Below, in pieces: positions 17,724 to 63,481 of a DNA stretch of 64,000 nucleotides (its first letter is position 1; every line of letters starts with the position of its first letter). The notes beneath the pieces are model-generated. The model made no database searches. It worked only from the letters and a program-made list of their open reading frames with translations, and was not told where the DNA came from. Position numbers and translations under genes: made by a program. Origin of the DNA: a virus; IMG/VR virus record IMGVR_UViG_3300045988_119396; one strand, 5' to 3'.

Positions 17724-18002
17724 CTTTGCCCCTTATTAAGCGGGTTTGAGAGTTTTTTATCTCCCAACCCTAATCTTTCAACTAGGAATGGCATATCTTT
17801 TCACCCACAACGTTACTTGCTAGGGTGGTGCGACCTCGTGGCAACATTATATTCTCAGTGAGTTTCAGTTGCTATGCTCTGCCCCTGTCTAGTCTTTTAA
17901 AACTAGCCTTCGGTTCTGATTACCATATCTTTCGACTTAGGCTTCCAGCTTAATTTCGCACTAATAATCTAACCAATTACTTGACTAGACGACCAATTTA
18001 AG
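17724..18002 (-). ncRNA. group-I-like self-splicing intron interrupting terL (boundaries +/- a few nt)
   Basis: ~279 nt with no ORF, splitting the terminase Walker A motif. Exon 1 ends ..YIAARG with U at the splice site. The insert ends in G before CAAGGTAAGAGC. Joining gives YIAARGQGKSF. The insert contains paired elements resembling group I P7/R-S sequences (AGACUAGACAGG ... AAGAUAUGCCAUUCCUAGUUG). Confidence 0.55.
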
Positions 18003-18197
18003 ACCACGTGCTGCGATATACATGAATTTGTCGTCCTTATTCATCATATAGAACAAGAAACGTTGGAATGGATGCAGATGAGTACCAAAATAGTCTTCCA
18101 TGAAACGATGTGGGTTTTGTCTATAAAAACCTATCCATTCAGCAAAATTCTCGGCTTTCTTTTGGAGATAACTACTCTGTTCCCTCATACAATTCAT
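18003..18197 (-). CDS. terL: terminase large subunit, exon 1 (N-terminal region up to Walker A AARG)
   Basis: 70-aa ORF ending ..HPFQRFLFYMMNKDDKFMYIAARG, the classic terminase N-terminus preceding GKS/T. SD GAGGTG sits upstream. The in-frame stop lies within the intron. Confidence 0.7.
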
Positions 18198-23723: not shown

Positions 23724-24755
23724 TTAAGCTACAAATGCTGCTGGCGTTCTAAAATTCATGAGCATATTCAATTCGATTTCGTCATCATCAACAAGTTCGT
23801 AATTGTCTTTGATATAGTTTTTTACAGCACTAGCCATGAAGTTACGAATGTAAACATAAATAAAGCTGCTGGCATTTCTGATAGTTTCTTTGCCACGATA
23901 TACATGTTCAGCGATTTGTAATAATGCAGATTCCAACCCTTTAGACAATAATTCGTTAGTTTCAAAACGTGTAGCCTCCTTGCTTGCTGGTGAATATAAC
24001 CATGTATCACTAGATAGTAACTTGCTTTCAACTTGACTCTTTGCTTTGAAGATAGTGTCTACAAACCACTTAGCTTTACTGTAACTACCTTGTGATAGTG
24101 TCTTAATACGTCCAAATGTAGACTTAGTTAGTACTGGAGCTACCTTATCTTCCAATGATTTAATTGCCATATCGTCTAAATCTTGTTCAGTGGGTTGAGA
24201 AACAGGGTTAACACCAGAATTTTGTGCGGGAGTGTCTGTTTCATTTGTTTCTCTTGTAATATTATTTGTATTTCTCTCTAGGTATTTCTCACTTGTAGGA
24301 ACATTTTTCACGCTCGTGCATGAAATATTTTCACTCACGATTGTATCAACGATTTCAGCCAATTCTTTTTGAGTATCATTTACTTCGACTATTTCTTTAT
24401 TAGCTGCCACTGTTGCTTGTGGTTCATGTACATAAATCTTGTAGTGTCGTAGACCATATCTCTTAACAGTAATTAGACCATACTTCACCAATTCTTTACG
24501 TAAGCTAGATACAGTTCTAGCAGTTGTACGAACTTTTTTAGCAGCCTCTTCATTTGTGAAGAAGATAAATGGTGTTCCATCTGGGTCAACAAACTTACTA
24601 TTTCCATTTTGTGCATTATTAATAGAGCAAGACAATCTTCTTGCATAGAATGAATATAGTAATATTGCTAAACCATTTAATTCCTTGTATCTTTCATCTT
24701 CAACTAATACATCTGATACCATTGAGAATGTATCTTTTCTTTTCAATTCCATCAT
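23724..24755 (-). CDS. plasmid-type replication initiator, RepA_N family
   Basis: N-terminal LAILLYSFYARRLSCSINNAQNGNSKFVDPDGTPFIFFTNEEAAKKVRTTARTVSSLRKELVKYGLITVKRYGLRHYKIYV is a close match to the RepA_N pattern (akilYsll.drl..S..n.w.DenG.vYi.ft.eel.e.l..s..tv.k..keLe..gLI...r.g....iYv). Divergent from parA across a repeat-rich AT-rich region. Confidence 0.6.
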   Translation of the reverse strand: MMELKRKDTFSMVSDVLVEDERYKELNGLAILLYSFYARRLSCSINNAQNGNSKFVDPDGTPFIFFTNEEAAKKVRTTARTVSSLRKELVKYGLITVKRYGLRHYKIYVHEPQATVAANKEIVEVNDTQKELAEIVDTIVSENISCTSVKNVPTSEKYLERNTNNITRETNETDTPAQNSGVNPVSQPTEQDLDDMAIKSLEDKVAPVLTKSTFGRIKTLSQGSYSKAKWFVDTIFKAKSQVESKLLSSDTWLYSPASKEATRFETNELLSKGLESALLQIAEHVYRGKETIRNASSFIYVYIRNFMASAVKNYIKDNYELVDDDEIELNMLMNFRTPAAFVA

Positions 24756-25840
24756 AATTATTTACCTCTTTCAATGAATATTTTTATGATGAAAATCAAA
24801 AAACAATGTGCTATAATGTAGATAACGTATTTAAAAAACACGTTTTCAACTAATATTGTTATTTTTGAAGTTCATCATTTTAATGACTTTTAGTAACGAT
24901 ATTTTTATTTAGCTTATCGTTCGCCAAAACGTAAGCTATTCAATTTAATAGATTTATTTAATTTGTTTACAAACCGTAGTTCGCCAAAACTGACGGTTAT
25001 TTTTTTGTCTAAATTTTATATCAATTTATTTTAATGTACACCCACGTAGTTATCTTAGAGGTACTTACGTGGGTTATTTTATTAGCATAATATATCTTAC
25101 CAGGAAAATGAAGATATGTTAAGTTTTTCCTGGTTTTAAATCGTTTTGAGCACTTTACATGAAGTCTGGCTAACTCACTCATGTACTTTCAAAGTTGCTC
25201 ACGTGTGACTATATGAAGCCTGGTAGAGTTATGTGGTGTGAGATATGTAACCGCCCTACCCTACTTCTATATGTTCAATATAGCACAAAAGAAAACGGAA
25301 TAAAAGAAGTTTCTTGTAATATGCTATTTAATCATAATGATGTTATTTATTATTATTAATATAATAGTATTAACATCATATAAATGCTATATAAGTTATA
25401 TATATAAAGATTATTATTAATATAATCATCATTAATGAATATTAACCATATTAATCTTTAATAAGGTATATATCTTAACATCAATATTATTAATAATACT
25501 AAAAAGATATATATGATATAACAATCAATATTGATTAGTTTTGTAAAGTGTAAATACCTATACAATAGCAATAATAAACACTTCAAGATAAATATACATT
25601 GTTATTAATTCTATTAAGTATACTAAAAAGATATATTTATTCTTATTATTCTTTTTAGTATACTTTCATATTTATTATATATAGTATATATAAATATTAC
25701 AACACAGCGTCAATAATTGGCTATATTAAAAAGATATATTTCACCTAAAGATTAATTTTATTAATAAGATAAACAAATGTTGACCTTAATTTATTTTGGT
25801 GGTACTCTTAACACATAAAGAAAAACTGGAAGTGATTTTA
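24756..25840. promoter_or_regulatory. origin/centromere-like intergenic region (hairpins, direct repeats, parS-like iterons)
   Basis: GTTCGCCAAAAC x2 (24906, 24972). Hairpins ACCCACGTA..TTACGTGGGT (25041-25076) and ACCAGGAAAA..TTTTTCCTGGT (25100-25140). Motif AAAAAGATATAT at 25500, 25625 and 25730, with a fourth copy at ~27165 after parB. 14-bp inverted repeat AGTATACTAAAAAG/CTTTTTAGTATACT at 25612-25665. Confidence 0.45.
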
Positions 25841-26731
25841 ATGAAGTACGATAAAAAGGTTTTCGACAAATTAAAAGAACATATTAGTAAAAAGGGTGAA
25901 GCTATATCAATAGTTATTGGTAATCAAAAAGGTGGTGTTGGTAAGACAGCTAATTCAACTTTAATTTCTTATATATTAGCTGAGAATGGTATCAAAACAC
26001 TTGTAATCGACTTAGACCCACAGGGTGACGCAAGTAAGACAATGACCTTGACTGGTGTTAGGGCTGCAAGAGAAAGGAAAGCTCCAGAGTCAGAATATCC
26101 TGTAATGAGAAAAACTATCTTATTAGGGATTAAAGAAGGGGACTTAACTACGTTACCAATGAAGATAAAGGACAACCTTTACTTACTTCCTAGCTATGTT
26201 GATTTTGAAGGTTTCCCAAAACTACTATATAGAGAAACAAATAACGATAGAGAAGAAACACATTTCTTGAAGAAACTGCTAGACCCATTAAAAGCAGACT
26301 ACGAAGTTATCATTATTGACACTCCACCTCAAGTTAAAGCTGTGACAGACAATGCTATTGTATTTGCTGATTATGTAACTATTTCTTTGCAGACACAAAA
26401 AGACTCTTTAGAAGGTGCTGAAAATTACATAGATACATTAGCAGACCTAAAAGGTGAGTATGATTTACCAATTCAATTATTGGGAATTATCGCAGTATTG
26501 AATGATAAGTATAGTAGTGTTGATGAAGCTATGCTAGAACGTGTACGTGATGAAATATCAGAAAACATCTTATTGGACACAATCGTACCAAATATGGCTA
26601 GGGTCAAACGTTTCCCACTTCAAGGTATTGGGGAGTCTGATAGATACGACAAGAGTGTATTAGACGTTTATAGAGAAGTTGCTACTGACTTCTGCAGCAG
26701 AATATTAGAATTTGAAGAAGATGAAGATTAG
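25841..26731 (+). CDS. parA: ParA/Soj-family partition ATPase
   Basis: Deviant Walker A KGGVGKT (IVIGNQKGGVGKTANS). Walker A' LVIDLDPQGD. Walker B VIIIDTPP. ATG at 25841 with SD GGAAGTGA. The ORF track began at an upstream GTG. Confidence 0.8.
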   Translation: MKYDKKVFDKLKEHISKKGEAISIVIGNQKGGVGKTANSTLISYILAENGIKTLVIDLDPQGDASKTMTLTGVRAARERKAPESEYPVMRKTILLGIKEGDLTTLPMKIKDNLYLLPSYVDFEGFPKLLYRETNNDREETHFLKKLLDPLKADYEVIIIDTPPQVKAVTDNAIVFADYVTISLQTQKDSLEGAENYIDTLADLKGEYDLPIQLLGIIAVLNDKYSSVDEAMLERVRDEISENILLDTIVPNMARVKRFPLQGIGESDRYDKSVLDVYREVATDFCSRILEFEEDED

Positions 26732-38287: not shown

Positions 38288-38884
38288 ATGCAAGCTATAC
38301 GATATGGTGAAGCCTTGAATTATCTGTTTGAGTTTTGCTTGTCTACTGGTAAAGAATTTCCGAAAGACTGGCGAAGGATAGACAATAGATTTTTCAATGG
38401 CATAAAGGATAACAAATTGAAAGATGAAGTGAAGATGTGTGTTGAGGTTATAAGCAACCATTCAATTAATAAGAATGGAAAAATTATACCTAAATCAAAA
38501 CGTGAAAGAAAAATTAATAGAGTGTTTAGACTGCAAAAAATAATCGAGCATGATATTAACTTTCATTACGGTAGACATACAAAAAGTATTTTAGAAAGAG
38601 AAGGATTACGTTTGAGCAACATGTACTCGGCATTAGGTAATCATGATGATTATATATCACAAAGAGAAAACGGTAAAAGAATTTTCTTGATTGATAGAGA
38701 AATGATTATCCACAAAACATATGATGATGTACACGTTGCTAGTAAAGAATACGGTGTCCAACCTTACAATGTTTACGATTGGTGCAATCGAGGTGCTTAT
38801 CGTTTTGATGGAAAAAGAATGATTAAAGCACATGTGTACAGTAATCTAGTTTGCAAAAATAAAGAATTTCATTATCAATTTTAG
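38288..38884 (+). CDS. homing-endonuclease-like protein with NUMOD1-type C-terminal DNA-binding helix
   Basis: KTYDDVHVASKEYGVQPYNVYDWCNRGAYRFDGKRM resembles the NUMOD1/IENR-type HTH of free-standing HEGs (tYdsi.eAak.lgi....i...c.gk...agGy.w). No GIY-YIG or HNH catalytic motif was recognised. Confidence 0.35.
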   Translation: MQAIRYGEALNYLFEFCLSTGKEFPKDWRRIDNRFFNGIKDNKLKDEVKMCVEVISNHSINKNGKIIPKSKRERKINRVFRLQKIIEHDINFHYGRHTKSILEREGLRLSNMYSALGNHDDYISQRENGKRIFLIDREMIIHKTYDDVHVASKEYGVQPYNVYDWCNRGAYRFDGKRMIKAHVYSNLVCKNKEFHYQF

Positions 38885-42601: not shown

Positions 42602-42654
42602 AAGATAAAAACAAAACAACAATAAAGATTAAGAATTAAAGGGTGGTAATTATT

Positions 42655-43671
42655 ATGGAAATTAGAGATGTATACACAAGTTGGTTGGAAAGTAAATCAG
42701 AAAACACAAGAACAAAATATCAAGCAAAGGTAGATAACTTTTCTGAAATGGTATTTGGGAAAGAGGCTTGGGAACTAACAGAAGAAGATTTGGTTAACTT
42801 AACATATCATGATGTTTATGGTAAATATATCAAAACATTCTTAACAGGTAGTAAACCAACTAAAGAAACAACTATTGTTAACTACCTACGTTCAATCAAA
42901 TCATATTTTGGTGCTATCAGACGTGCGGGTATTTATCCTAACGTTAATTTCGACCATCTGGTTAACGATGTATTATATACGAAAGATTTATCTGCTAAAG
43001 ATGGTGGACATAACGAACAAATTTCCAAATCAGAAGTTAAGGAAATGGAAAGTTGGTTGATTGATAACAAGCCAAATGGATATAAGTATGCTACATTGAT
43101 TGATTTCATGTTTCATACAGCAGTTCGTGTTTCAGCTGCATTCACTATCCGTTGGAGTGGCTTTACAGTTTATGAAAGTCCTTATGGTGGTACTTTTGCT
43201 AAGTTAAAAGTAATTGATAAGGGACGTAAATTGAACGATAAGGATATTCCAGTAAAACACTTTAACAACCTAAAGGAAACTATGGGGTATGATGGAAATG
43301 ATGATGAGTTAGTGTTTAAGGGTATGAAACAAACAACCTTGCGTAATTACATGAAGGAATTTAGTGACCTTCGTGGACGTAACTGGACTCCACATTCATT
43401 AAAGGTTGGTGCTGCTACTACATTTTATAGCATTACTAAAGACATTGTTGCTACATCAAGACTATTAGACCATGAAAGTTTAGATACAACAATGACTTAT
43501 ATTAGAAACAATCCTAACCCAAATGATAGTGGTACAACAATCTTATATAGTTCAGATACACACGTTGACTTCAGCAAATTAAAGAAGGAACAACTATTGA
43601 TGTTGATTAATAATAGACCAGAAGTTGCCGATATGTTATCACGTGACGCAGAACGTATGGGAGTGAATTAA
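42655..43671 (+). CDS. tyrosine recombinase/integrase-like protein with Arg-II replaced by Lys
   Basis: Box I HTAVRVSAAFTIRW. HSLKVGAATTFY, with K where HxxR is expected. LLDHESLDTTMTYIRN carries the catalytic Tyr. Confidence 0.55.
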   Translation: MEIRDVYTSWLESKSENTRTKYQAKVDNFSEMVFGKEAWELTEEDLVNLTYHDVYGKYIKTFLTGSKPTKETTIVNYLRSIKSYFGAIRRAGIYPNVNFDHLVNDVLYTKDLSAKDGGHNEQISKSEVKEMESWLIDNKPNGYKYATLIDFMFHTAVRVSAAFTIRWSGFTVYESPYGGTFAKLKVIDKGRKLNDKDIPVKHFNNLKETMGYDGNDDELVFKGMKQTTLRNYMKEFSDLRGRNWTPHSLKVGAATTFYSITKDIVATSRLLDHESLDTTMTYIRNNPNPNDSGTTILYSSDTHVDFSKLKKEQLLMLINNRPEVADMLSRDAERMGVN

Positions 43672-61346: not shown

Positions 61347-61424
61347 ATCGGATAGCTTAATGGCAGAGCGTACGAGTATGATAACGATACTTGTAAGGTT
61401 TGATGTTCAATTCATCAATCCGAT
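61347..61424 (+). ncRNA. tRNA-like cloverleaf (78 nt) with non-canonical extended anticodon arm
   Basis: Acceptor ATCGGAT/ATCCGAT (7 bp). D-arm GCT-taatggcag-AGC. 9-bp stem TACGAGTAT/ATACTTGTA with loop GATAACG. T-arm TGATG-TTCAATT-CATCA. No encoded CCA. Confidence 0.35.
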
Positions 61425-61970
61425 ATTTGTCACAGTGATTATTTGACAATAATGTTTATTTTGTACTCATGATGAGTACCTCCTTTTATTTAAACTTATT
61501 TTTCTGAATTATGTAGTACGTATACCTAATCACTGTGGCACACCTCCAAGTTAGATTGGTAGGTGGGTAAGATAACGGTATTGCCCATCTACAAAAGAGT
61601 TGGCACTTCTCCTACATAAAATTAGAATTAATGTTTCATTCCAGTCAGCTCTTTTGTAGGTGAACAAAACTTAGTTTGCCTAAACAATTTTCGCAAGTCT
61701 GAAAGGATTTGTACTTTCCAAATTGATGGTGTTCTATGGTTAGTATTTCTCTAGTCTATTTTGTTAATTATTTTAATACTAATTTTAATATCATCTCTTT
61801 AACACTTTTTATTTTTATATTATTTTGTTTTTATCTGAATGTCAGCCCATTAGGGTTGATATATCAGCGAGTAGACGGTTGACTTTTTGATATATTTTTT
61901 ACGACCTCCGATTTTATGCTTGTTTTTTAAGCTACTCGTTGATATATCCATCTTAGTCGGAGGTGTAAGC

Positions 61971-62311: not shown

Positions 62312-63481
62312 GTGAGTAAGATGTTAAAAGGTATTAAATTACGTATATACCCAAATAAGAGACAACGTGAACAGTTGGATATTATGTTTGGTAATAGTCG
62401 TTTTATTTGGAATAATATGTTAGCTACGATGAACGAGCGTTACAAGAATAACAAAGATTTACCTATGTTAACCGAGTATAAATTACATGTTCTACTAAAA
62501 CCTTTGAAAGTTGAATATCCATTCTTGAAAGAGAGTGATAGCACTGCTTTACAAGTAGATTGTCAAAATCTGTATCGAGCGTGGAAGAACTTCTTTAAAT
62601 CTGGTTTTGGTAAGCCTAGATTCAAGTCTAGGAAATTCTACAAGCAATCTTATACAGGTAAGTCGGCACCTAATGTTCATGTAGTAGCTAAAAGATATAT
62701 GAAACTACCTAAGCTAGGCTATATCAAAACTAGCAAAACATTTCAACTCACCGATTGCAAGATTAAACGTTATACGTTAAGTCATGGCACGACTGGTCGT
62801 TATTATTTATCTTTACAGGTAGAATGTGAAAATCAAGCATTGTTACCTAAGACAAATAAATCAGTTGGGTTAGATTTAGGTGTAGCAGATTTAGCTATTT
62901 CTTCTGATGGAATTAAATATGATACATTCCATGTGGGAGATTTAGAACATAAAGCTAACTTGTGGCAACGTAAGTTTTCTAAGCGTAGACATCAAGCTAA
63001 GGTTTGTATCGAAAGTGATAAATACTCAAAAGTATTAGTGCCTAGAGATTTTGATGATTTTAAAAATCTACAAAAGGCTCGAAAGCGCAAAGCGAGATTG
63101 CAAGCTAAGATAGCTAACAAACGTAAAGATTACTTGCATAAATTAACCACTACGTTAGTAAAGCAATACGATACTATCGTTATTGAAGATTTAAAGGCTA
63201 AGAATATGATGAAAAATCATAAACTAGCAAAAGCAATAGCTAACGGTTCATGGTATTTATTCCGTTCTATGTTGGAATATAAGTGTAATTGGTATGGGAA
63301 GCAACTAATAGTAGTTAGTCCTAAATACACTTCACAAGTCTGTTCTAACTGTGGTGTAAATACAGGCAAGAAATCGTTAGATGTTCGTGAGTGGACTTGT
63401 GATAATTGTGGTACACATCACGATAGAGATATTAACGCTGCTAGAAATATCTTGGCTAAAGGATTGAAAGAAGTAGCTTAA
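62312..63481 (+). CDS. tnpB: IS200/IS605-family TnpB (OrfB) RNA-guided nuclease; no TnpA
   Basis: Ruv[18 protein letters not shown]. Ruv[13 protein letters not shown]. Zinc finger CSNCG..CDNCG. Ruv[15 protein letters not shown]. Confidence 0.8.

Follow-up and report, generated by a model that had tools for sequence, protein, structure and literature searches.

The DNA analyzed here, referred to below as the window, is a 64,000-nt viral sequence (IMG/VR record IMGVR_UViG_3300045988_119396). All genes between approximately positions 100 and 24,700 lie on its minus strand, including terL, the gene for the large terminase subunit. This gene is interrupted, and its parts are arranged as follows.

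18003 to 18197, minus strand: terL exon 1, codons 1 to 65, ending ...YIAARG with U as its last base (open reading frame and translation)
17724 to 18002, minus strand: putative group I intron in terL, 279 nt, without an ORF, with the terminal guanosine (omega-G) at 17724
17985 to 17987, minus strand: UAG, the first in-frame stop of the intron, at its sixth codon and inside P1/P2
16167 to 17723, minus strand: terL exon 2, codons 66 to 583 plus stop, starting QGKSFLIAWYC

Read directly, the N-terminal ORF (18197 to 17985) has 70 codons (MNCMREQ...HPFQRFLFYMMNKDDKFMYIAARG, through ...FMYIAARG and then LKLVV and a stop), while the C-terminal frame is open from 17732 down to 16167 (GAK-QGKSFLIAWYCIVRC, that is, GAK-QGKSFLIAWYC...). 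Excision of 18002 to 17724 (279 nt, or 93 x 3) fuses CGU GGU to CAA GGU AAG AGC, and the coding sequence spliced in silico encodes 583 aa containing IAARGQGKSF, with the P-loop AARG/QGKS restored. The insert lies in phase 0 between codon 65 (GGU, G65) and codon 66 (CAA, Q66), inside the Walker A loop; it is preceded by U (18003), ends in G (17724), and is closed by stops in each of the three sense frames. The initial annotation had described terL as split within Walker A by an insert of about 280 nt closed in every frame, and the positions it gave coincide exactly with the intron. It had also called the insert GC-balanced, in keeping with a G+C content of 41% compared to 33% for the window.

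Pfam TerL_ATPase and Terminase_6N matches on the joined protein cover residues 56 to 195 and thus span the junction at 65/66. Across 95% of its length, joined TerL shares 44% identity with YonF of SPbeta, annotated in RefSeq as a terminase-family protein, and it is similarly close to large terminases from other SPbeta-like phages that infect Bacillus, Clostridioides, and Staphylococcus. The gene is uninterrupted in nearly all of these phages, ~130 phage records encode the homologue as a single piece, and the R-G-x-[GS]-K-[ST] loop has a constant length in ~80 intron-less homologues. By homology, the product is a predicted SPbeta YonF-type terminase of 583 aa after exon joining. A megablast search with the terL region returned zero matches among phage records, and the spliced protein had no sequence match in the PDB.

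The boundaries of the insert are set by natural alleles that lack it. Two IMG/VR loci (L006 and L007) carry terL at 97 to 98% nucleotide identity to that of the window (98% for exon 1 against L007), minus exactly these 279 nt, and read CGTGGA/CAAGGAAAGAGC where the window reads CGTGGT[279 nt]CAAGGTAAGAGC. The boundaries set in this way agree with the earlier proposal that the 5' exon ends in U, that the insert ends in G, and that joining restores AARGQGKS. A one-base slide remains at the boundary, with C on both sides of the insert; the parse with U at -1 and a terminal G was chosen because it is the sole one fitting group I rules. In the alleles compared, codon 65 is GGT wherever the window's intron is present and GGA wherever it is absent, which is what a requirement for U in the wobble pair at the cleavage site would produce.

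There is next to no chance that the insert is an artefact of mis-assembly or an insertion of another kind, be it an IS element or MITE, an intein, a group II intron, or a region bypassed in translation like that of T4 gene 60. Nothing specific favors any of these, beyond the presence of a TnpB gene elsewhere in the window. The insert occurs in 7 of 8 metagenome or isolate contigs with an identical gene upstream of terL and also in L011. Its recurrence in identical form in many independent assemblies excludes the assembly artefact that the initial annotation had named as a possible refutation. Terminal repeats and a target duplication are absent from the junction, and an intein is excluded by the stops in all frames (the first at the sixth codon), since a continuous in-frame ORF would have to run through the insert. 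No group II or other Rfam family matched the insert, and for a bypass, 279 nt would have to be skipped without matching take-off and landing codons.

The check proposed at the outset, cmscan with RF00028, was borne out in part: in a scan of 751 nt this model was the best Rfam match and aligned over its full length (model positions 1 to 253, E = 1.9e-4), but the 25.9 bits obtained fall below its gathering score of 50. The threshold of this single model is a curated convenience and not a structural definition. Across the whole window, an Rfam scan at gathering thresholds gave no match, and a scan in E-value mode missed RF00028 and returned a tRNA-like match alone. A hidden Markov model of the intron family scored 279 bits on the terL intron, its sole match within the window. 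Helices P1, P2, P3, P4, P5, P5a, P6, P6a, P7, P7.1, P8, P9, and P9.1 were drawn by hand, with percentages below referring to the 17-sequence alignment.

17989 to 18007, minus strand: P1, exon GUGGU plus intron C (18007 to 18002) with guide GGUCGU (17994 to 17989, intron positions 9 to 14)
17994 to 17996, minus strand: UUG able to pair with CAA at the start of exon 2 (P10, manual pairing)
17969 to 17988, minus strand: P2 hairpin, CUAGUCAA-GUAA-UUGGUUAG, with a GNRA loop
17791 to 17961, minus strand: catalytic core, P3 to P8
17961 to 17956 with 17833 to 17828, minus strand: P3, 94% paired, 6 of 6 pairs covarying
17948 to 17916, minus strand: region of P4, P5, and P5a, with P4/P5 96% paired
17913 to 17884, minus strand: region of P6 and P6a, with P6 100% paired
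17877 to 17873 with 17795 to 17791, minus strand: P7 pseudoknot, GCAUA/UAUGC, invariant in all 17 homologues
17872 to 17868 with 17845 to 17841, minus strand: P7.1, GCAAC/GUUGC, enclosing a small hairpin
17827 to 17823 with 17806 to 17802, minus strand: P8, 97.5% paired
17786 to 17769, minus strand: P9, CCUAGUU-GAAA-GAUUAGG
17768 to 17744, minus strand: P9.1, double changes in 6 of 8 pairs (12-sequence alignment), outer three pairs tentative

The structure was evaluated by direct pair counts on alignments, with 3' partners slid out of register and 500 shuffles as controls. Among 12 terL-family introns, 89.7% of cells were paired compared to 32 to 43% after sliding, with double changes in 40 of 75 pairs, and none of the 500 shuffles equalled the observed pairing. 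Adding homologues from gyrA, a recD-like gene, an RNA polymerase gene, and a Listeria phage terL region gave 17 sequences in five different host genes, in which 82.7% of cells were paired (33 to 42% when slid) and 50 of 75 pairs showed double changes. Covariation was seen in P3, P6, P6a, P7.1, and P8. Near-identical copies of the intron carry zero substitutions in P3, P4, P6, P7, and P8, and 6 of their 8 variable pairs are still paired; P2 pairing is likewise kept in population variants (e.g., U.G to U-A, C-G to U.G). Minimum free energy folding of the single sequence scored no better than that of shuffles (z = -1.1) and did not reproduce the group I fold.

The insert thus combines a P3 to P8 core knotted through P7 and P3, a U before the 5' splice site that forms a U.G wobble with the internal guide (U18003.G17993, manual pairing), an omega-G at a boundary fixed by intron-less alleles, and precise excision that restores the reading frame. 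P7 is the guanosine-binding helix of group I introns, and subgroup IA, to which phage introns usually belong, is marked by an extra helix P7.1 located between P7 and the 3' strand of P3. P7.1 is present here with 5 of 5 pairs covarying and 96.5 to 100% of cells paired, and judged by this helix the subgroup appears IA-like. The least secure element is P1, which comprises one G-C, one C-G, and four wobble pairs and is predicted at ~0 kcal/mol in isolation. Its register is identical in L008_i1 and in the diverged L014_iA, where two of the G.U pairs are G-C. Taken together, the 279 nt at 18002 to 17724 are very likely a phage IA-like group I intron with an extra P7.1 that would splice; the earlier suggestion of a group-I-like intron with P7 pairings has gained a complete covarying structure and a family HMM in its support.

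A second possible guide pairing was noticed. Exon CGUGGU (18008 to 18003) could pair along its full length, ending in U.G, with intron GCCACG (17841 to 17836) within a conserved CCACGAG. It was set aside because homologues inserted in other genes also conserve CCACGAG, which makes the complementarity probably a coincidence, although the GCCACG segment could act as a competing partner for the exon.

Over the whole coding sequence, the window differs from intron-less L007 by 47 synonymous and 4 non-synonymous codons spread along the gene, with no frameshift and no stop in 1.7 kb of exons, and five other alleles gave a similar pattern. These counts indicate that the exons are under purifying selection. 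As a P-loop interrupted at this point would be inactive, selection on the exons implies that terL is expressed through removal of the insert, and the RNA is almost certainly spliced. We consider it quite improbable that the insert is instead a decayed group I intron that no longer splices, with terL reduced to a pseudogene and the element surviving as a plasmid. The weak P1 and the Rfam score below the gathering threshold speak for decay, and the closest public record, plasmid pMP1046B, has no CDS over the terL body. The element also has plasmid replication and partition genes (RepA_N, ParA), so that terL might in principle be dispensable, and relatives of the Limosilactobacillus type have non-canonical inferred splice sites, so not every copy in the family need be active. 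Against decay stand the 47 synonymous to 4 non-synonymous changes in exons free of frameshifts and stops, the strict linkage of U(-1) to intron presence, polymorphisms that preserve pairing and leave the core helices untouched, and P7 invariant in 17 of 17 homologues.

A terminase assembled without RNA splicing from two polypeptides, the N-terminal ORF of 70 aa and a product of 513 aa initiated at UUG 17708, is scarcely credible. Gene callers do predict 67-aa and 513-aa ORFs, and UUG 17708 has an AAGG 9 nt upstream. The break, however, falls inside the P-loop, and the 513-aa product lacks AARGQGKSF, that is, the whole Walker A motif, which is uninterrupted and of fixed length (RGx[GS]K[ST]) in all ~80 intron-less homologues; furthermore, the insert has a conserved ribozyme fold rather than the character of a spacer.

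Under the preferred reading of a splicing group I intron, we propose the following sequence of events. In the transcript, P1 would form between the internal guide GGUCGU and the exon end GUGGU, placing a U.G wobble at the cleavage site, and exogenous guanosine bound in P7 would attack after U18003. The terminal G17724 would then take the place of the guanosine in the G-site while the guide UUG holds CAA of exon 2 (P10), and ligation of the exons would yield ...AARGQGKS.... Active packaging ATPase would be made from spliced mRNA only, and the UAG six codons into the intron would halt ribosomes ahead of the ribozyme core. One could speculate further that the intron acts as a gate on packaging, with splicing coupling terminase production to cell state or induction. 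We regard this as unlikely. If it were true, active TerL would require guanosine-dependent splicing inside the P-loop codons, and in sister alleles with two introns, the order of splicing or exon skipping (loss of Gln-Gly) would set the balance of active and dead ATPase.

Such sister alleles occur among IMG/VR elements whose terL is 97 to 99% identical to that of the window, and the intron is polymorphic at one site among these close relatives, as a mobile intron would be. Neither intron is present in L006 and L007; the window's intron alone is found in the window, L011, L018 to L023, and L025; a neighboring intron alone is found in L024 (3965 to 4233); and both are found in L008 to L010. The neighbor is a different group I intron of 269 to 270 nt, its insertion point after codon 67 (GGT) lies two codons further downstream, and its guide is clean (GAUUU-GCCU complementary to AGGU/AAAUC). 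Where both introns are present, an exon of 6 nt, CAAGGT, lies between the two ribozymes. Each intron is accompanied by synonymous changes in the exons (GGT in place of GGA for one, AAGAGCTTT to AAATCGTTC for the other). The neighboring intron was noted in L008 (3196 to 3744) and likewise in L009, L010, L032, and L033. Both exon skipping and small exons flanked by phage introns are already on record (PMC11878797), and the twin introns are for that reason a striking example and not a new principle. Nonetheless, four occupancy states, two sites six bases apart, and strict linkage to an exon U make a compact natural system, useful for studying what lets introns without a homing endonuclease gene (HEG) persist and how a single guide-sequence neighborhood is shared by two ribozymes.

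Further introns were found in terL genes of the same family. A third site lies at codon 93/94 (..ASG/T(K/R)GQA..), occupied in L014 (3536 to 3798) by an intron without an ORF and in L040 (1377 to 2500) by one with a 301-aa LAGLIDADG ORF. P-loop introns of the Limosilactobacillus type occur in L005 (3184 to 3430), L039 (~2690 to 2957), L040 (~1020 to 1290), L053 (~2684 to 2933), and L038 (352 to 1452), all with an intact P7. None of the splice-site parses tried for these copies gave both U(-1) and a terminal G while preserving the invariant 8-residue loop. The sites that fit best have A as the final base or come after a C-G or G-C pair: L053 and L038 are best parsed as AGGU/UUGUAAUA...CUA/CAGGG, with A as the last base, and L005 as GGGC/GAAC...CCCG/AGGGG, with C-G at the cleavage site. 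These copies may be decayed or may use non-canonical splice sites; if spliced, they would represent natural group I introns that lack the canonical omega-G or U.G.

The terL intron of the window holds no HEG (its only ORFs are antisense, of 42 and 46 aa), as the initial annotation had observed, and therefore cannot home by itself. No free-standing endonuclease gene that might act in trans adjoins terL, which is flanked by a YonG-like gene and by a 502-aa ORF that has no Pfam match and lies where SPbeta has its portal gene yonE. Six-frame ORFs of the window contained no GIY-YIG or LAGLIDADG motif and no phmmer homologue of six intron-encoded endonucleases. The gene at 38288 to 38884 (plus strand, 198 aa), earlier taken as HEG-like, did not live up to that description, with no Pfam match, no PHROG match, and no similarity to the six endonucleases; the Pfam survey of the window covers the best 25 of 51 families, which leaves some room for a weak HNH-type match.

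Endonucleases are found in relatives of the intron. At the same codon boundary, L038 has a 1,101-nt intron with a 279-aa LAGLIDADG ORF in its P1 loop. In Mammaliicoccus phage phi127 (L002, PV389080.1, 1378 to 4352), a single terL is interrupted after ASRGLG, two codons downstream of the window's site, by a 1,172-nt group I intron with a 294-aa LAGLIDADG ORF (Pfam LAGLIDADG_3, 1.8e-15). The LAGLIDADG proteins of L038, phi127, and L040 are homologous, with that of L038 37% identical to phi127 and 28% to L040. The window intron was probably seeded by, or is probably a deletion derivative of, such LAGLIDADG-carrying relatives targeting the same P-loop codons, and we infer that it is a HEG-less member of this guild of introns. 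It may spread or persist by recombination between co-resident elements or through an endonuclease supplied in trans.

The element that carries the intron most resembles pMP1046B of Ligilactobacillus salivarius JCM1046 (NZ_CP007648.1; 93% identity over 84% of a 14-kb query). That replicon was published as a putative chromid of mostly cryptic genes with no phage region called (PMC4165912), and its PLSDB/RefSeq table leaves the terL body without a CDS. Three genes of the window were noted in this connection.

23724 to 24755, minus strand: RepA_N
25796 to 26731, plus strand: ParA-like
42643 to 43671, plus strand: integrase family

Together with the SPbeta-type terminase, the window has YonG-type genes and a holin. 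Because SPbeta-like phage genes occur here with plasmid replication and partition genes, the element is best read, from its gene content, as an SPbeta-like phage-plasmid of L. salivarius. Two further features were noted in the same DNA. A TnpB-type protein of 389 aa (62312 to 63481, plus strand) with HTH_OrfB_IS605, OrfB_IS605, and Cas12f1-like TNB domains is, by these domains, an IS605-family element or a solo TnpB. A tRNA match at 61347 to 61425 (plus strand; 35.5 bits compared to a gathering score of 29) came from the E-value-mode Rfam scan only; the gathering-mode scan missed it and ARAGORN calls no tRNA. Plasmid pMP1046B was reported with two tRNA genes.

Recognition of the intron matters for annotation. 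Gene callers and pipelines relying on Rfam thresholds split terL into a 67- to 70-aa fragment and a 513-aa "hypothetical protein" or drop the gene altogether. Mis-annotation of this kind is seen in the pMP1046B record and in that of phi127, where terL appears as separate hypothetical proteins and an "endonuclease." Restoring the complete terminase helps to re-read "chromids" of the pMP1046B type as SPbeta-like phage-plasmids.

Within the Lactobacillaceae, Mikkonen and Alatossava are said to have described, in 1995, a group I intron in terL of Lactobacillus delbrueckii phage LL-H, which would resemble the present case in element, gene, and host family. Lactobacillus phages were absent from the blastn matches to the window intron, and on that account the LL-H intron is probably a different one. 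SPbeta itself (NC_001884) offers another parallel within the same phage lineage, with group I introns in the conserved DNA-metabolism genes bnrdE and bnrdF, one of them with an HNH ORF. The SPbeta introns are in other genes, its own terL (yonF) being uninterrupted, and they belong to a different subfamily, since the family HMM matched neither.

More distant homologues of the intron were found by blastn and the family HMM in unannotated gaps of split genes, with full-length HMM matches at E = 1e-18 to 1e-29. They sit in split gyrA of Bacillus phages BpSp and Goe21, in a split recD-like helicase gene of PJN02 (adjoining a "mobile intron protein" and an endonuclease), in a split RNA polymerase gene of Aeromonas phage AhC3_1, and in the terL/intein region of Listeria phage LIS04; their own records annotate none of them as introns. 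All share with the window the same P3 to P8 core with compensatory changes and a 3' region of the form ...GAUAAAAA...AACA..G, but they differ in host gene and in P1 and guide sequences, and several have endonuclease ORFs.

Insertion into the Walker A codons is also known for elements that splice at the protein level. Mycobacteriophage TerL carries P-loop inteins at two sites one residue apart (PMC5050341), much as two intron sites lie two codons apart here, and in both cases a selfish self-splicing element occupies Walker A codons; the inteins, unlike the intron, splice as protein and not as RNA, and are unrelated to it.

The nearest precedents are the terL introns of Firmicute phages, which the initial annotation had mentioned in accordance with the literature. 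Group I introns are present in terL of Bacillus cereus-group prophages (term-IVS1 and term-IVS2), with early in-frame stops noted in introns of these phages (PMC2504315), and the TerL intron of the Bastillevirinae phage SIOphi splices in vitro and in vivo (PMC11878797). A review that also covers terL introns explains the bias of such elements to conserved motifs of polymerases, reductases, and terminases (PMC3984707). Like these, the intron of the window is a group I element in a Firmicute phage or prophage, inserted in frame with an early stop in P1/P2. Some B. cereus-group and Bastillevirinae terL genes hold two or three introns, and relatives occur with and without endonuclease ORFs, as here. 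In contrast, terL of the window belongs to the SPbeta YonF lineage in a Lactobacillaceae host, and its splicing is predicted. Group I introns in terL are already well documented, and the present one is a real but ordinary case of a known mobile element that leaves the understanding of group I introns unchanged, while adding SPbeta-like elements of the Lactobacillaceae to the hosts of terL introns.
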